Source of the DNA: Candidatus Latescibacterota bacterium
GTDB lineage: Bacteria > Latescibacterota > UBA2968 > UBA8231
Reading direction: 5' to 3'
Assembly (NCBI GenBank): GCA_965217585.1
Contig: OZ244561.1
Location: 2,656,001 to 2,720,000, forward strand
DNA length: 64,000 bases
Shown here: positions 13,844 through 19,379 of the stretch, in pieces
How positions within the stretch are numbered: the first letter of the stretch is position 1
Layout of the letters: every line of letters begins with the position of its first letter
The notes under the pieces: generated by a model
What the model was told of the DNA's origin: nothing
What the model saw: the letters and a program-made list of their open reading frames with translations, nothing else
Databases searched by the model: none
Made by a program: the position numbers and the translations under genes

Positions 13844-15268
13844 ATGCCAACCATGCAACGACCGAATATCCTCATACTCTACACCGACCAGCAGCGGTGG
13901 GACGCCCTCGGCGCCAACGGCAACTCCGAAATCCGCACGCCGCACTTGGACCGGCTCGCTGCTGCCGGGATAAATTTCGATCACTGCTTTGTGCAGAATC
14001 CGGTCTGCATGCCCAGCCGCGTGAGCTTTCTCACTGGGCAGTATCCATCCGCGCTAGGGCTTTCGCACATGGGAGTGCCCGTGCCCGCGGACGCGCCGAC
14101 CTTGCCGCGCCTGCTGCGCAACTACGGCTATTGCAGCGGCCAGATAGGCAAGCTCCACTTTCTGCCGCACGCCAACCGCGACCACCGCCAGCCCCATCCC
14201 GACTACGGGTTCGACCACTTGGAAATTTCGGACGAGCCGGGTTCCTACCACGATGCCTACCGCGCTTGGGTGGCGGCGCAGGCCCCTGAGCAACTCGACC
14301 ACGTCAGTCTTGGCGAGGCGCCCAGTTCAATCGAGTGGAAGCGGATTATGAACGTCCGCGACGGGATCGCGCATCCAGCAGAGCGCTTTGTCAAGCGCGC
14401 CTTGGCCAGCCGCTGCCGCAGCGACCTGACCCACACGGCGTTTGTCGCCGAGCAGACCATGGAGTTTTTGACGCGCCACAGGGACGGCCCTTTCCTCTGC
14501 ATCGCCGGCTTCTATTCGCCGCACGATCCGTGGGTGGCTCCCGAGGAATTCCTCGATCGCTACGATCCAGCCGCTCTGACTTTGCCGCCCTTCCCACCGT
14601 CCCTCGACGCTCGCCGAGGCCCACAGCACTTTTCCGACGACGAATTGCGCTCCGCCCGCCACGGCTATTACGCCATGGTATCCGAGGTTGATCACCACGT
14701 CGGCCGCATCCTCGACCGGCTCGACGTCCTCGGCATTGCGGACAATACCATCGTCGTCTTCACGTCCGATCACGGCGAGTGGCTCGGCGAGCATCTGCGC
14801 TACGGCAAGGGCTACCCTGGCCATGATGCGGTCACGCGCGTCCCCTTGCTGATGCGCTGGCCCGCCGGGGCAAGGGACGGTGGGCATTGCTCCCGCATCG
14901 TCGAGGCGTTAGACGTGGTGCCGACGCTGCTGGAAGCCGCGGCAATTCAGCGGCCGGCTGCATTGCAAGGCAGTTCCCTGCTGGCCGATTTGCGCGAGGA
15001 GGAGGGCGCTGGCCCCGGCTGCGCCATTACGGAAATGACGCCGACCAAACCGCAATCCAACTGGAAGACGCTGCGCGTGGAGGGGTTGCGCTACGTGGTG
15101 GATGCAGGTGGAGCGGAGACTCTCTTCGACTTGGAGCGCGATCCGCTGGCCTACGAAGATGTGGCGGGCGAAAGCGCGTACGCCACTCAACTGCAAGCGG
15201 TCCGCAAGCGGTTGCTAGAGAGGCTGCTAGTGCGCGAGCGGCCGCTGCCGCGACAGTGGACGTACTGA
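13844..15268 (+). CDS. Sulfatase (Cys-type, formylglycine-dependent)
   Basis: RPNILILYTDQQR, CMPSR (CxPxR), GKLH, PHDP and FTSDHG. Confidence 0.92.
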   Translation: MPTMQRPNILILYTDQQRWDALGANGNSEIRTPHLDRLAAAGINFDHCFVQNPVCMPSRVSFLTGQYPSALGLSHMGVPVPADAPTLPRLLRNYGYCSGQIGKLHFLPHANRDHRQPHPDYGFDHLEISDEPGSYHDAYRAWVAAQAPEQLDHVSLGEAPSSIEWKRIMNVRDGIAHPAERFVKRALASRCRSDLTHTAFVAEQTMEFLTRHRDGPFLCIAGFYSPHDPWVAPEEFLDRYDPAALTLPPFPPSLDARRGPQHFSDDELRSARHGYYAMVSEVDHHVGRILDRLDVLGIADNTIVVFTSDHGEWLGEHLRYGKGYPGHDAVTRVPLLMRWPAGARDGGHCSRIVEALDVVPTLLEAAAIQRPAALQGSSLLADLREEEGAGPGCAITEMTPTKPQSNWKTLRVEGLRYVVDAGGAETLFDLERDPLAYEDVAGESAYATQLQAVRKRLLERLLVRERPLPRQWTY

Positions 15269-15269
15269 G

Positions 15270-15434
15270 CTTGGTCTTGCTGCGAGATTCGGCGTGAGCG
15301 ATGAGGATGTGATCGGCAAGAGCGGCGACATAGGCGTTGAGATGGGCGGCGAGTGCTGTGGTGGGGCGGCGGATCCTATTAGAAAAAAAAGGGCAGCAAA
15401 AACCGGCGTCGTGCTGATAGGCTGCCGGGAGCGT
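15270..15434 (-). pseudogene. Remnant of a DprA/SLOG-like gene (C-terminal part)
   Basis: Start-less minus-strand frame reads LPAAYQHDAG...FFSNRIRRPTTALAAHLNAYVAALADHILIAHAESRSKT. This resembles the 'RR.T..LA..RN..VAALAD...IAHA...SKT' end of short DprA-like proteins, recognised from memory. Confidence 0.45.
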
Positions 15435-15509
15435 CCAGTTACAAAAGTATCAGGTTCTCAACATCTATAATATCCGGTTCTTGGTGTGTGGGAGAGCGAC
15501 ATAATCCCC

Positions 15510-15538
15510 TTGACTCGGATATGTGCCACTCATAGGCT
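15510..15538 (+). promoter_or_regulatory. Putative sigma70 promoter of the HD-domain operon
   Basis: TTGACT-17 nt-TAGGCT about 140 nt upstream of the GTG start. Confidence 0.35.
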
Positions 15539-15679
15539 TTTATCGTAGCGTAGCTCTTTGACAAGAGAATAGGTTGCTAGTTCCAGTACTGTCGACCACC
15601 CGGTCAATGTAACTTCTGTGCTGGGTAAAACCTGTTAGGTGGGTGGCCCGACTGATTTTTTCATAAGGAATAAAATTCC

Positions 15680-17014
15680 GTGAAGTATACTCACGAAATT
15701 AGAGACCCAATCCATGTGTTCATTCGTTTGGACAGCGACGAACGCAAAGTTCTTGATTCCCGTCCGTTCCAGAGACTACGTCATATCCACCAACTGGCAA
15801 TGACCTATCTTATTTATCCTGGCGCAACACATAAGCGATTCGAGCATTCGCTCGGCGTTATGGAACTCGCCGGACGGGTCTTCGATGTTGTCACTGATCC
15901 AGACAATGTCACGGATGAAATCAAGCATTTGCTGGAACCGCTCAATGCTCCTGACAAACGAGCGTATTGGCGGCGGGTGGTTCGTATGGCCGCACTATGC
16001 CACGACATTGGCCATCTGCCGTTCTCGCACGCGGCTGAAAAGGAGCTTCTACCAGACGACTGGGATCACGAGGATTTGACGCGGAAGATTATTGTTAGCG
16101 ACGAAATGAAAACGATTTGGGGATCTGGCACCCCCCCGCTTCGTCCCGAAGACCTCGAAAAACTGGCCATCGGACCAAAGAAGGCTACCGACTTAGAGTT
16201 CGCAGATTGGGAGACGATCTTGACGGAAATTATCGTTGGAGATGCGTTCGGCGTCGACCGCATGGACTATCTGTTACGGGACTCGCACCATGTAGGAGTC
16301 GTCTATGGAAAGTTTGACCACCACCTGCTGATCGATACTCTGCGCATTTTGCCGCCGGCCCCATCGGACGAGAATGGGGAATCTCAAGAGCCAGCACTAG
16401 GTATGGAAGAGGGCGGCATTAAGTCAGCGGAAGCGTTGATGCTTGCACGATATTTTATGTACTCGCAGGTTTACTTTCATCCCGTGCGTCGAATTTACAA
16501 CATTCATCTAATGGATTTTCTCAAGGAATGGCTCGATGGTGGCGCGCTTGCAACGGACTTGGAGAGTCATCTAAAAATGACGGACAACGAAGTGACGGCT
16601 GCTCTATGGGAAGCCGCATTTGAGGAGGAGGAGAAGGTTGGTCATACACATGCACGCCGAATCGTACGGCGCGAGCACTTCAAGTGCCTCTACCGACGGA
16701 ACCCCAAAGATGTCACCATCAACCCGGAGTCAGGAAAATTAGTTTTTGAGGCGTTAGCGGATCAATACGGTGAGGAACACTTCCGTCATGACCGTTATAG
16801 TCAGAAAAGCGGTGCGCCGGATTTCCCGGTGCGAATGCGTGACGGCCGGATTGTATCGTCCATCACTTTTTCCGAGGTGTTAAGCAACATACCTGTGGTT
16901 TCAATCGACTACGTCTTCGCTAATCGGCAGTTTTTCGATGGGGCAAATACATGGATGGACAACAACCGTCTCACAATTATCAACAAACAGGAAGAGGAGA
17001 AACAAGATGGATAG
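15680..17014 (+). CDS. HD-domain dNTP triphosphohydrolase (SAMHD1/YwfO-like)
   Basis: IRDPIH, FQRLRHIHQL, YPGATHKRFEHSLGV, LCHDIGHLPFSH, DRMDYLLRDS and RYFMYSQVYFH; lower GC than the flanks. Confidence 0.9.
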   Translation: MKYTHEIRDPIHVFIRLDSDERKVLDSRPFQRLRHIHQLAMTYLIYPGATHKRFEHSLGVMELAGRVFDVVTDPDNVTDEIKHLLEPLNAPDKRAYWRRVVRMAALCHDIGHLPFSHAAEKELLPDDWDHEDLTRKIIVSDEMKTIWGSGTPPLRPEDLEKLAIGPKKATDLEFADWETILTEIIVGDAFGVDRMDYLLRDSHHVGVVYGKFDHHLLIDTLRILPPAPSDENGESQEPALGMEEGGIKSAEALMLARYFMYSQVYFHPVRRIYNIHLMDFLKEWLDGGALATDLESHLKMTDNEVTAALWEAAFEEEEKVGHTHARRIVRREHFKCLYRRNPKDVTINPESGKLVFEALADQYGEEHFRHDRYSQKSGAPDFPVRMRDGRIVSSITFSEVLSNIPVVSIDYVFANRQFFDGANTWMDNNRLTIINKQEEEKQDG

Positions 17015-17579
17015 ACTGAGAAGGGCTGGGCTATTGACGCGACTGATAGAGGGTCTTCGCAACAATGGAAGCTGGTGCGGCGAGACGCATGTTCAGAAAG
17101 CCACGTTTCTTGCGCAGGAGCTCGCCGGAATTCCGCTGGGCTTCGATTTCATCCTGTACAAGCATGGACCGTTCTCGTTCGACTTGAGAGATGAACTCAC
17201 TGCTCTACGTGCGGACGGATTATTGAAGCTTGAAACGCAATGGCCCTACGGTCCCCGTATCTCCCCTACGCCCCAGAGCGAATACATAGAGGGCCTGTAT
17301 CCTAGGACATTGGAGAAGTACGGGACCGCCGTTGCGTTCGTGACCAACCGGCTCAGCAACAAAGGCGTCAGCGAGCTCGAGCGTCTGGCAACCGCGTTCT
17401 ACGTAAATCTTCGAGAGGATAAAACTTCGGTTGATGAAAGAGCCACGCGGCTGACGGAATTGAAACCGCACATATCGAAAAAAGACGCTAGGGACGCGAT
17501 TCAGGCGATTGACAAGATTGCCGAGGATGCCGAAGCACAGTTCTCTCTACTCACCGATCTCTCTACTCACCGAGTTTGA
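17007..17579 (+). CDS. YwgA/Panacea(SocA)-like winged-helix partner protein
   Basis: ATG at 17007 after GAGGAG, overlapping the HD stop; GETHVQKATFLAQ...FDFILYKHGPFSFDLRDEL and LERLAT motifs. Confidence 0.65.
   Translation: MDRLRRAGLLTRLIEGLRNNGSWCGETHVQKATFLAQELAGIPLGFDFILYKHGPFSFDLRDELTALRADGLLKLETQWPYGPRISPTPQSEYIEGLYPRTLEKYGTAVAFVTNRLSNKGVSELERLATAFYVNLREDKTSVDERATRLTELKPHISKKDARDAIQAIDKIAEDAEAQFSLLTDLSTHRV
17542..17573. repeat. Perfect 16-bp tandem duplication TCTCTCTACTCACCGA x2
   Basis: Copies at 17542-17557 and 17558-17573, at the junction of two convergent genes. Confidence 0.95.
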
Positions 17580-18684
17580 CGATTAGATCCTTGCCGAACT
17601 CGATGCCGGCGACTCGGCACGCTATCTGAATTTGGTTCCTTTTCGTGGATGTAGAGCTGTTCGTTCCTAGCCACCACCCGCCGGATAGGGAAGCTGACTG
17701 TGTCTCGGCCAGCTTGAGATCGTCGGGGTAGAGCGCATACCGATCGCGTGCGAGGTACTGCCGCGTACGTCCCTTCAAATGCGGTTCCAGTTTCTCGCAG
17801 AACTGGACATCCTTTTCTAAAAGCCGCTCGAAGACGCCCACCAACAATTCCTTGCCATTACGGAACCATTCCGTTTGCCCGCGGAAGGTGAACGAAAACT
17901 CTTTCCCCTGTCGGCCCTTGGGGAGTTCGGAAACTGCTTGGAAATGCTCCAGTGTTGGTTCGGTAGGGACCTCAGAAGTCTTCACCGTTTGAGAACGTCT
18001 TGGCGATGATTTGGAACCTTGCCCCCGAATAAACTCCTCCACGCGGCGAAGGTCCGGTCGCACACCGCTGGTCCGTTCCACTTCCTCACAGAACCAGTCC
18101 TTGAGGACCTCGGGTGGCTCGTGGAGAAGTTCGGCCCACACCGCCTCAAAGTTCGCGGCCGCTTCGCTCTGCTGTCGGAAAGTGTAGTAGTCGTCATGGG
18201 CGCGTCGGTGCGCTTCCCCGGCTCGCACGGTCTCAAAGGCGAGATAACGGCTTATTCTCTCGGCACCTTCAGTCGCGTCGTCATTAACTAAGTCCACCGT
18301 GGCAAAGCGCCGTTCTTGATAGCTACCCTGTCCTGCTGGAAAGAAGAACCCCCAAGAACGCCCATCAGTCAGCACGGCGAGCGGAACTCCCTGCCTAAAG
18401 CAGTAATCAAAGAGCTGCTCTTCGCCTTTTGCGTTTGCCTTGCCGACATCTTTGACCTCGACCAAGACGGACGGCTTGCCGGGCGGATGACAAAGTGCGT
18501 AATCGACTTTGCGTCTCTTGATGGGAAACTCGGGAATCACCACTTTAGGATCCCAGACGTTCCAACCCAGTGTATTCAGGAGACGCATCACCACGCTGCG
18601 AGAGATTTGAGCTTCGTTGGCAAAGTCCCCCCGCGTCAAACTGTCGCGAATTTCCTCGATTTGAAGGGTCAGATTTTCCGCCAT
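17563..18684 (-). CDS. HsdR_N-type PD-(D/E)xK nuclease fused to a SeqA-like C-terminal domain
   Basis: NEAQI....V..LL..LGW, VIPEF, VDYAL, VEVK, QLFDY and VLTDG in the N-terminal part; KGRTRQYLA...GWWLGTNSST..K in the C-terminal part. Confidence 0.75.
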   Translation of the reverse strand: MAENLTLQIEEIRDSLTRGDFANEAQISRSVVMRLLNTLGWNVWDPKVVIPEFPIKRRKVDYALCHPPGKPSVLVEVKDVGKANAKGEEQLFDYCFRQGVPLAVLTDGRSWGFFFPAGQGSYQERRFATVDLVNDDATEGAERISRYLAFETVRAGEAHRRAHDDYYTFRQQSEAAANFEAVWAELLHEPPEVLKDWFCEEVERTSGVRPDLRRVEEFIRGQGSKSSPRRSQTVKTSEVPTEPTLEHFQAVSELPKGRQGKEFSFTFRGQTEWFRNGKELLVGVFERLLEKDVQFCEKLEPHLKGRTRQYLARDRYALYPDDLKLAETQSASLSGGWWLGTNSSTSTKRNQIQIACRVAGIEFGKDLIVKLGE

Positions 18685-18847
18685 GGTATCTCCTCTTCAA
18701 TTGAAAAACGTTCGGACTCCTCTAGCCCTCGGGTCGCATGAGAATAGATTATTGTAAATTTGGTCTCAAAGTCTAGCAACGTCTCCTTAGAAGCAGCAAC
18801 GGGTACCGCCTCGCCGTGTCGATAGGATCAACGGCCGCAAAAGCGCG

Positions 18848-18876
18848 GGAATGAATCGCGGTGATGGGGTGTCTAA
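18848..18876 (+). promoter_or_regulatory. Putative ECF (RpoE-like) sigma promoter
   Basis: GGAATGA-16 nt-GTCTAA upstream of a Spy/CpxP-like periplasmic gene. Confidence 0.3.
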
Positions 18877-18920
18877 TTCGCCGTAGTGTCCCTCAAATTT
18901 TTTACAAGGAGAACCGTGAG

Positions 18921-19379
18921 ATGTGCATTCGCAAGGTGGCCTTATGGATTGTCGCCATTAGTTTGTCGAGCGCCGCGGTGCTCGAAGCTCAGCCAGGAGG
19001 TAGGCGTGGCGGCATGGGCGGCGGCATGGCACCGGAGCAGGTTTTTGCCCTACTGGCCTTTGATGAAAAGTTCAAGGTGACCGACAAGCAGCTACCCGCG
19101 CTGCGGCAGGCGCTTAGGCCGCTATACGTCGAGCAAAGGCAGATGTTGGCGGAAATGTTCAGTGGCGAGGTCGATTTTCGGGCTATGCGCGAGAAAATGC
19201 GCGAGCAGCAGACCAAGATGCGCGACAAGATCATGACCGCGCTCGCCACGGCGTTAGACGCCGAGCAGATCGAAGCCCTAAAGGCGCATCTACAGCAGAG
19301 GCAGCGCCAGCGCGGTGGGCCGCGGGGCGGTGGTGGGCCGCGAGGGGGTGGAGACGGTCCGCAGGGCGGCGGGTTTTAG
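18921..19379 (+). CDS. Secreted helical protein, Spy/CpxP-like, with Gly-rich tails
   Basis: Signal peptide MCIRKVALW...LEA; VTDKQ and LDAEQ (LTxxQ-like) motifs; GGPRG repeats. Confidence 0.55.
   Translation: MCIRKVALWIVAISLSSAAVLEAQPGGRRGGMGGGMAPEQVFALLAFDEKFKVTDKQLPALRQALRPLYVEQRQMLAEMFSGEVDFRAMREKMREQQTKMRDKIMTALATALDAEQIEALKAHLQQRQRQRGGPRGGGGPRGGGDGPQGGGF

Follow-up and report, generated by a model that had tools for sequence, protein, structure and literature searches.

Why should a bacterium encode a large enzyme of the SAMHD1 type in overlap with a small protein resembling the neutralizing part of a toxin-antitoxin (TA) system? This is the question raised by a two-gene locus in a 64,000-nucleotide stretch of a Candidatus Latescibacterota bacterium genome (contig OZ244561.1, positions 2,656,001 to 2,720,000), hereafter the window. 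A reading made from the sequence alone had proposed that the pair, an HD-domain deoxynucleoside triphosphate (dNTP) triphosphohydrolase and a YwgA/Panacea-like partner, is a nucleotide-depletion defense or TA module. Our answer, which we hold at roughly even odds (a probability of about 0.5), is that the pair is a type II TA-like defense module in which a SAMHD1-type dNTPase is held off by a partner resembling the C-terminal domain (CTD) of DarG and Panacea proteins. The two genes are as follows.

15680..17014, + strand: HD-domain protein of 444 aa, predicted SAMHD1/EF1143-type dNTP triphosphohydrolase, presumed effector or "toxin"
17007..17579, + strand: partner protein of 190 aa, YwgA family, standalone homologue of the DarG C-terminal toxin-binding domain (Panacea-like), presumed inhibitor or sensor

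The first open reading frame (ORF) in the list for the window starts with GTG. The second is open over 16938..17579 on the + strand, and we place its true start at 17007 because its homologues begin at an internal Met (alignment A1, 23 sequences) and because GAGGAG precedes the ATG at that position. This ATG lies within the last HD codons, ATGGATAG, so that the start of the partner and the stop of the HD gene overlap by 8 nt. Both genes are poorer in GC (HD, 0.506; partner, 0.536) than the window as a whole (0.601), and they belong to an islet (15269-18860) with a GC content of 0.528 between flanks of 0.614 on the left and 0.608 on the right. The picture of two overlapping genes in a lower-GC islet therefore stands as first drawn.

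What kind of enzyme is the HD protein? The full SAMHD1-type motif set that had been claimed for it could be located, namely, HKRFEHSLG at residues 51-59, HDIGHLPFSH at 108-117, and DRMDYLLRD at 193-201, and Pfam recognizes an HD domain (31.1 bits; cutoff, 22) and, in the C-terminal region, HD_assoc_2 (52.6 bits). Its best sequence matches in the PDB are Aquifex Aq_1910 (2hek; 1e-52), the Enterococcus faecalis dNTPase EF1143 (2.9e-26), and 9mr6, an HD protein without a name, together with numerous entries for SAMHD1 near 1e-20. An AlphaFold2 model built from 27 sequences (predicted local distance difference test [pLDDT] score, 87.5) gave Foldseek matches to 2hek (template modeling [TM] scores of 0.74/0.89), EF1143 (approximately 0.7), and the SAMHD1 catalytic core (0.72 to 0.76), all with a probability of 1.0; the SAMHD1/EF1143 assignment is thus borne out by both sequence and fold. 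In alignment A2 (27 sequences), H51, R53, H56, H108, D109, H112, H117, D193, D196, Y197, R200, and D201 are invariant, and these include the metal ligands H56, H108, D109, and D193 (27/27). Residues 26-39, DSRPFQRLRHIHQL (D..Q.LR.I.QL), align letter for letter with a stretch of SAMHD1 that we take to be allosteric site 1 together with the Q-L contacting the substrate sugar. Models of the anti-phage dGTPases fare differently: the PADLOC dGTPase model scores 34.5 bits over residues 18-123 only, NCBIfam NF041026 (antiphage_dGTPase) reaches 17.5 bits where its cutoff demands 400, and TIGR01353 reaches 34.6 where 152 is required. Because these models match residues 18-123 only, we place the protein in the SAMHD1/EF1143 branch rather than the Dgt branch. 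The gene itself is real, with 7,240 of 8,000 scored candidates matching HD at E ≤ 1e-3. Taken together, the motifs and the model argue strongly that the protein would hydrolyze dNTPs.

The partner carries the motif first noticed in it, QK..FL.Q...F....HGP.S, in the form of QKATFLAQ (residues 30-37) and FILYKHGPFS (residues 48-57), yet it has no Pfam match at E ≤ 10 and only a chance-level match among PDB sequences (E = 1.7). Two independent DarG models do find it, the PADLOC model at 4.9e-7 (model positions 168-324 of 329) and NCBIfam antitoxin_DarG at 1.3e-4 (positions 172-324 of 338), and both match solely through their C-terminal toxin-binding part, over the whole length of the partner. The macrodomain (ADP-ribosyl glycohydrolase) of DarG is absent from these 190 aa, in which no Pfam domain was found. 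Consistent with the DarG matches, the AlphaFold2 model of the partner (pLDDT, 90.8; predicted TM score, 0.87) matched the DarG CTD bound to DarT (7yk3_B/D) at E values of 4e-5 and 6e-5, with TM scores of 0.66 to 0.68 and an identity of 20 to 22% over 183 to 186 columns. These were the sole strong matches among PDB structures. The next Foldseek matches, of partial coverage, were winged-helix regulators of the PadR/MarR type (E = 0.04 to 0.5; TM score, 0.2 to 0.35), and the model does resemble a winged helix in its N-terminal half.

How far the name Panacea applies is a matter of level. According to the available part of a 2026 paper, DUF4065 (Panacea) proteins are homologous to the DarG toxin-binding domain. 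When 141 representatives of the partner family were compared with Pfam at E ≤ 1, PF13274 (SocA_Panacea) was the commonest family, with 8 members (best E = 0.0025) against 3 for the next, although these matches are subthreshold and the window partner has none at E ≤ 10. Weak leads to Panacea also came from the Atlas and from a viral fold library, in which a phage SocA-like Panacea protein ranked eighth (E = 0.16) and no match reached E ≤ 1e-3. The description "YwgA/Panacea-like" therefore holds at the superfamily level (DarG models, 7yk3, and PF13274 in 8/141), while the partner in the window is missed by the Pfam model for Panacea; its place with YwgA agrees with the name that JGI uses for 8 of 120 listed homologues. 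The best-supported description, judging from profiles and the predicted fold, is that of a standalone DarG-CTD-like protein.

At least 90% of the 141 representatives share W23, G25, E26, T27, H28, Q30, K31, Y51, G54, P55, S57, F58, E125, K153, P154, and H155, and the conserved stretches of the protein are residues 23-31, 51-58, 124-130, and 153-155. The conserved polar residues (E26, T27, H28, Q30, K31, K153, and H155), with W23, G54, and P55, may form an enzyme-binding face or a ligand site. The partner has G54-P55-F56, of which G54 and P55 are among these conserved positions, and this triplet is at most a possible counterpart of the GPV motif of Panacea, a signature that the available literature describes as critical for neutralization. 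The gene is real (3,906 of 4,391 candidates matching at E ≤ 1e-3), and its family forms 1,841 representative clusters at E ≤ 1e-3, of which 400 reach E ≤ 1e-30; among the 150 matches listed, all homologues are 137 to 263 aa long, mostly about 180 aa. A search of longer proteins for HD-partner fusions returned 8 matches. The one that was inspected, P0392 (613 aa), has HD over residues 3-373, then some 60 unrelated residues, and then the partner from its own Met at 433, a layout that has the look of frameshift read-through and not of a true fusion.

Are the two genes kept together elsewhere? When the partner profile was run against 185,579 species, each represented by a single genome, 409 loci were confirmed, and the locus analyses described from here on cover the best 80 of these, picked by partner match (L001 to L080). 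Partner identity to the window copy is 49 to 79% in this set; between partners of different phyla, the median identity is 51%. By record title, the loci come from Acidobacteriota (21), Pseudomonadota (17), the archaeal Methanobacteriota (10), Latescibacterota (6), Planctomycetota (5), Myxococcota (4), Thermodesulfobacteriota (3), Bacillota (2), and four phyla with one locus each, making at least 12 named phyla, with 8 loci lacking a phylum. Directly upstream of the partner, HD is intact in 51 loci, full length but broken in 10, a partial remnant in 9 (one of which, L046, is probably cut by a contig end), absent in 8, and cut by a contig end in 2. HD ends 8, 4, or 1 nt inside the partner start in 44 of the 70 HD ORFs identified through clustering (29, 7, and 8, respectively). 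No third conserved gene emerged from all-against-all ORF clustering of the 80 loci; the partner cluster spans 72 loci and the HD cluster 67, and the next largest spans 7. Pairwise identities of HD and partner among 51 pairs are correlated (r = 0.79; 0 of 2,000 permutations as high), and the two genes therefore travel together.

In the HD tree, well-supported branches bring different phyla together (18 label changes against a minimum of 9). Acidithiobacillus, for example, groups with Desulfacinum (support, 99), and four archaeal copies sit in a clade (support, 96) with copies from Bacillota and Bacteroidota and two of deltaproteobacterial type. The HD proteins of L054 and L069, from metagenome-assembled genomes (MAGs) of Bacteroidota and Bacillota, are almost identical (branches of 0.03 and 0.01; support, 100), a closeness that points to gene transfer between the phyla in the very recent past or else to a contig binned wrongly; mis-binning could account for some of the cross-phylum cases but not for the overall pattern of the tree. 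The window copy clusters with three Latescibacterota genomes (L001, L002, and L005). Patchy across phyla and domains, and in the window confined to a low-GC islet, the pair is a horizontally mobile two-gene module.

In many loci the enzyme gene is broken or missing although the partner is still there. In-frame stops interrupt HD at W97, W128, Q38, Q375 (two loci), R327, and K319, falling at conserved W, Q, and R positions. Other HD genes have shifted frames, lack an internal segment, are truncated at the N terminus, or, in two cases, carry an insertion sequence (IS). In a close Latescibacterota relative (L003:4830-6875), an IS of about 2 kb, bounded by terminal inverted repeats and encoding a DDE_Tnp_1 transposase, lies within HD, and in L045:6691-7917 an ISAzo13-type transposase splits it; the partner is intact in both. 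Indeed, the partner ORF is readable in nearly all loci with a damaged HD gene. Where HD is gone altogether, the genes usually found 5′ of it abut the partner. Partner swapping in the manner of Panacea was considered and rejected for these loci: they carry the same upstream genes (type ISP enzyme and BrnA) as related loci with HD, so they represent HD deletions and not swaps, apart from L066 (a P-loop ATPase) and L076 (an unknown protein). This pattern of decay fits a costly or toxic enzyme whose loss leaves an "orphan antitoxin" behind.

What company does the module keep? We scanned the immediate neighbors on both sides against Pfam at E ≤ 1e-6 (138 proteins) and assigned ten more to HmaA/HmaB by clustering with the scanned L026 proteins, giving 148 in total. 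Defense, TA, or mobile genes account for 36 of these, in 29 of the 80 loci. Among them are type ISP and other restriction-modification (RM) enzymes, BsoBI, Uma2, HNH, HSDR_N, DUF5131 (a PADLOC candidate), BrnA, PIN, DarT, DUF4258, DUF4411, MNT-type nucleotidyltransferases, AAA_21, the transposase of an IS1595 element, the reverse transcriptase of a group II intron, and the Hma genes. The internal control consisted of the last complete gene toward either end of a locus, provided that it lay 5 kb or more from the pair (n = 70); of these, 4 fell into the same classes (two RAMPs, HicA, and GIY-YIG), or 7 if two Xre-type helix-turn-helix proteins and a plasmid-type protein are included. For immediate against distal genes, the odds ratio is 5.3 (P = 6e-4) and falls to 3.8 (P = 0.012) when the ten Hma genes are left out, figures to be read with the caveats that classing by Pfam names is subjective and that related loci are not independent. 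The defense-island context proposed for the window thus finds its support mainly in the neighbors of relatives (36/148 against 4/70) and in the HSDR_N protein of the window itself. The "DprA remnant" that formed part of that proposal could not be confirmed: the two stop-to-stop frames in 15231-15470, to which the search was confined, gave no Pfam DprA match at E ≤ 1.

The most striking of these neighbors are the Hma genes, which adjoin or flank the pair in 10 of the 80 loci, in both bacteria and archaea. The gene order in L026 (Desulfacinum infernum) is HmaA (an SNF2 helicase with NOV_C, 2e-92), the pair, HmaB (a DUF1156 methylase, 6e-114), and HmaC (a DUF499 ATPase, 5e-114), and the succession of HmaA helicase, pair, and HmaB methylase was read directly in L026 and L065. 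Clustering places Hma genes in L028, L040, L061, L065, and L070 and part of the set in L062 and L071, and DUF1156 fragments lie beside the pair in L013 and L031. On the HD tree, the ten Hma loci require at least five changes of state, and the association has therefore been gained or lost several times. The HmaA-HmaB junction also houses a Septu cassette in Halomonas, as described in the accessible literature, and a 2026 survey (PMC12839542), in the part available, describes auxiliary effectors embedded in "BREX-related" systems, those named being nucleases. Upstream of the pair in L031 (L031:172-702), a 176-aa ORF joins the N terminus of DUF1156 (HmaB) to the C terminus of NOV_C (HmaA) and looks like a deletion scar within an Hma system. 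In the Methanosarcinales Hma locus L065 (L065:5934-9979), the gap between helicase and methylase holds the HD-partner pair followed by DarT (2.7e-47) and a macrodomain DarG-like gene; this is the only one of the 80 loci in which DarT stands beside the pair, and that DarT has its own macrodomain DarG. Four archaeal loci that are related to one another (L051:2-1591, L059, L066, and L075) have a gene for anaerobic ribonucleotide reductase (NrdD) no more than 8 kb from the pair. This proximity of a dNTP maker to a dNTP destroyer may be lineage synteny.

How might such a module work? Its layout is that of a type II TA system in that the genes are bicistronic, overlapping, and co-inherited. In the scheme that we propose, the HD gene would supply the effector, a dNTP triphosphohydrolase of the SAMHD1/EF1143 type under allosteric regulation, and translational coupling would ensure that the partner is made in step with the enzyme. 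In healthy cells, the partner presumably binds the enzyme and keeps it off; a phage-related cue, be it partner loss, titration, or a conformational change, would then release the enzyme, which would drain the dNTPs and stall viral DNA replication. Substrate, binding, toxicity, trigger, and phage protection are parts of this scheme that we infer. Each half would have a precedent, as far as the available parts of the relevant papers go, in toxin neutralization by Panacea and in the restraint of the Clover dNTPase by its neighbor's product.

Several points weigh against a defense module of this kind. The available literature discusses YwfO and a mycoplasma homologue as housekeeping nucleotide cleaners, and PADLOC 2.0.0 contains no system for the HD-partner pair. 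The anti-phage dGTPase models of PADLOC and NCBIfam cover a short N-terminal stretch of HD and score far under their cutoffs, and many loci have plain housekeeping neighbors (PGK, GidA/ParB, GluRS, and FtsH). In 72,556 plasmid records there was one distant partner match, not beside HD, and none of 50,697 phages carried the partner family. The comparison of the partner profile with the L065 DarG, the single DarG compared, was not significant (E = 0.11). Conservation of the partner is unusually high for an antitoxin and could point to a role beyond simple neutralization. The partner does not have the overall charge of a DNA mimic, a further candidate role, the family being not acidic (median pI, 7.1). 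Finally, the number of broken HD genes carries a bias, since a good partner match was the basis on which the loci were selected, and long-read MAGs are among them. The plasmid match (L081:5998-6543; NC_019972.1, an archaeal megaplasmid of Methanomethylovorans) has 30% identity to the partner and lies beside a family-B DNA polymerase gene, with a helicase gene nearby.

A bolder form of the same proposal would make HD-YwgA an unrecognized but widespread anti-phage system of bacteria and archaea, in which the partner would both hold the SAMHD1-like dNTPase inactive and double as an infection sensor. The pair would have been taken up several times, as a reserve effector, between the Hma helicase and methylase genes. 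It would then be a prokaryotic counterpart of SAMHD1 restriction that is controlled by a protein inhibitor instead of phosphorylation or a nucleotide signal. We put this forward tentatively, with the odds somewhat against it.

That the pair is a plain addiction TA module is, in our view, unlikely. In such a module the partner would neutralize a growth-arresting HD enzyme for the sake of selfish persistence, with no role in phage defense, and a good deal of what is described above would suit it: the homology of the partner to an antitoxin domain (DarG models and 7yk3), the gene overlap with toxin preceding antitoxin, the patchy distribution, and the resemblance of enzyme-less partners to orphan antitoxins. 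HD-DUF4065 pairs are also filed as putative TAs in the available part of PMC8832971. However, the family is almost missing from plasmids, where addiction modules thrive, its recurrent place in Hma systems and beside RM genes suggests recruitment to defense, and typical TA toxins are simpler than a 444-aa enzyme in which allosteric motifs are conserved.

We consider it quite unlikely that the pair serves housekeeping control of the dNTP pool, with an enzyme that trims or cleans pools, as EF1143, TT1383, and YwfO presumably do, and a partner that acts as a growth-state regulatory subunit. The closest solved relatives do include the housekeeping dNTPase EF1143, several loci lie among core genes, and four have NrdD nearby; furthermore, YwfO-type proteins are discussed in the available literature as nucleotide sanitizers that coevolve with PolC. 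A conserved core function nevertheless fits poorly with a family found at only 409 loci in 185,579 species genomes, with a tree at odds with taxonomy and a window copy in a low-GC islet, and with an enzyme gene that is repeatedly inactivated amid neighbors enriched in defense, TA, and mobile genes.

It is improbable that the partner chiefly binds DNA as a winged-helix regulator of its operon, or that it serves the enzyme as a SocA-like activator or adaptor rather than an inhibitor: its N-terminal half is winged-helix-like with weak matches to PadR/MarR, SocA (a Panacea protein) is a proteolytic adaptor, and the authors of a 2023 study, in its available part, favor a sensor role for Panacea, but the regulator matches are partial and low in TM score, that same study argues that Panacea is probably not a transcriptional autoregulator, and the sole strong structural match, over the whole length, is the protein-binding DarG CTD.

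Returning to the window and to the proposed defense module within it, three further features surround the pair.

15506..15679, + strand: candidate promoter and 5′ leader of the operon, a conserved upstream region
17563..18684, - strand: standalone HSDR_N (restriction-type PD-(D/E)xK) protein of 373 aa, convergent neighbor of the pair, from Pfam
18861..19379, + strand: protein of 172 aa with a hydrophobic N terminus and a Gly/Arg-rich tail, right edge of the low-GC islet

About 170 nt 5′ of the HD start can be aligned among the window and the two closest genomes (L001 and L002), and the spacer farther upstream cannot; a sigma-70 scan of the + strand upstream of HD (15506..15679) found no consensus promoter. 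The convergent neighbor (GC content, 0.558) vindicates the restriction-like nuclease said to lie beside the pair, with an HSDR_N match of 32.8 bits (cutoff, 25.1) and an Atlas score of 0.99 to HSDR_N clusters, where the look-alikes are standalone HSDR_N proteins. It lies inside the low-GC islet, but among the 80 related loci it recurs in L001 to L003 alone and so stands outside the conserved pair. L001 and L003 also share the sulfatase flank of the window, and the islet is therefore old within the Latescibacterota lineage. Residues 292-353 of the HSDR_N protein show a weak, subcutoff match to the C-terminal, hemimethylated GATC-binding region of SeqA (22.1 bits; cutoff, 25.5). The sole Pfam match of the 172-aa protein is LTXXQ, at chance level (E = 0.81). 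Farther out, the genes on the left (squalene/phytoene synthase, amidohydrolase, PCuAC, SCO1, and sulfatase) and on the right (MOSC and CFA synthase) belong to ordinary metabolism; the setting "among catabolic genes" is thus right as to metabolism, but only some of the genes are catabolic. The immediate neighbors of the pair in the window are the sulfatase and the HSDR_N protein, with no Hma genes in these positions, and there are no tRNA genes in the window.

Nucleotide depletion is an antiviral strategy common to animals (SAMHD1) and bacteria (dGTPase, dCTP deaminase, and Clover). To our knowledge, the way in which such dNTP-depleting enzymes are restrained is understood for a few cases only. 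If the module works as we propose, it would represent a new mode of dNTPase control, in which the enzyme of bacteria and archaea whose fold comes nearest to that of SAMHD1 itself is joined with a protein of the DarG-CTD/Panacea type. Gene pairs of the YwfO/YwgA type, long without explanation, would gain a function open to testing; Panacea-like proteins would number a large allosteric enzyme of metabolism among their toxins; and the auxiliary effectors of Hma/BREX-related systems would come to include one that is not a nuclease. The idea is directly testable because the pair is small, active-site mutants are clear, and the readouts (dNTP pools and plaque assays) are simple.

How does the pair compare with systems already described? 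It resembles the ywfO-ywgA pair of Bacillus subtilis in the label "YwgA" that JGI gives to partner homologues; ywfO itself we take to be a COG1078 HD protein beside ywgA. With SAMHD1, EF1143, and Aq_1910 (2hek), the HD protein shares the fold, the metal site, the catalytic residues, and the stretch matching what we take to be allosteric site 1; unlike SAMHD1, it has no SAM domain, it carries a C-terminal HD_assoc_2 region, and its gene is coupled to that of a partner. The partner, in turn, is folded like the domain with which DarG of the DarTG system captures and blocks DarT (7yk3), and it matches this part of the two DarG models. The systems differ in that DarG has a macrodomain and its toxin is the ADP-ribosyltransferase DarT, whereas here the presumed toxin is an HD hydrolase, and the identity between the partner and the DarG domain is 20 to 22%.

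Among known defense systems, the anti-phage dGTPases (Tal et al. 2022) resemble our proposal in using dNTP depletion as a defense but come from another branch of HD enzymes and are single-gene systems. Closer in organization is Clover (PMC12265719), in whose published description, as far as available, a nucleotide-depleting effector (the dGTPase CloA, with an HE catalytic dyad) is restrained by the product of an adjacent gene (the nucleotidyltransferase CloB). CloB is, according to that description, an enzyme that makes an inhibitory nucleotide, whereas the partner has no recognizable enzyme domain and resembles a protein-binding antitoxin; CloA, moreover, would appear to fall in the Dgt branch and not in the SAMHD1/EF1143 branch. 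The ten Hma-associated loci recall the embedded auxiliary cassettes described, in the accessible part of the literature, for the Hma/DUF499 BREX-related type 1 systems, with the difference that the auxiliary effectors described there are nucleases and the HD enzyme of the pair is not of nuclease type.

For the pairing itself, the nearest precedent is PanAT. The available part of the work of Kurata et al. 2022 (PMC8832971) includes a system, pT33/T34, in which an HD phosphohydrolase gene ("YdhJ") is followed, as here, by a DUF4065/Panacea gene. Dataset S1 of that paper, in the portion available, has about seven HD-DUF4065 rows (those checked being from Clostridia), with toxin preceding antitoxin at spacings of -4, 0, or -17 nt and the mark "notest," and the pairing is therefore not wholly new. 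The same portion gives no Hma or defense context for these pairs. Standalone Panacea domains, according to the accessible literature, neutralize toxins directly and may be sensors. We found no published experimental work on a pair made up of an HD/SAMHD1-like enzyme and a YwgA/Panacea/DarG-like protein, in a search that left subscription papers mostly outside. The pT33/T34 antitoxins pass the DUF4065 model, whereas the window partner fails it, and it is here that the present results go beyond the earlier ones. What is new is a much wider partner family that the Panacea model misses, with the fold of the DarG CTD and a spread across phyla and into the archaea; new as well are its repeated placement inside Hma systems and the recurrent loss of the enzyme with which it is paired.

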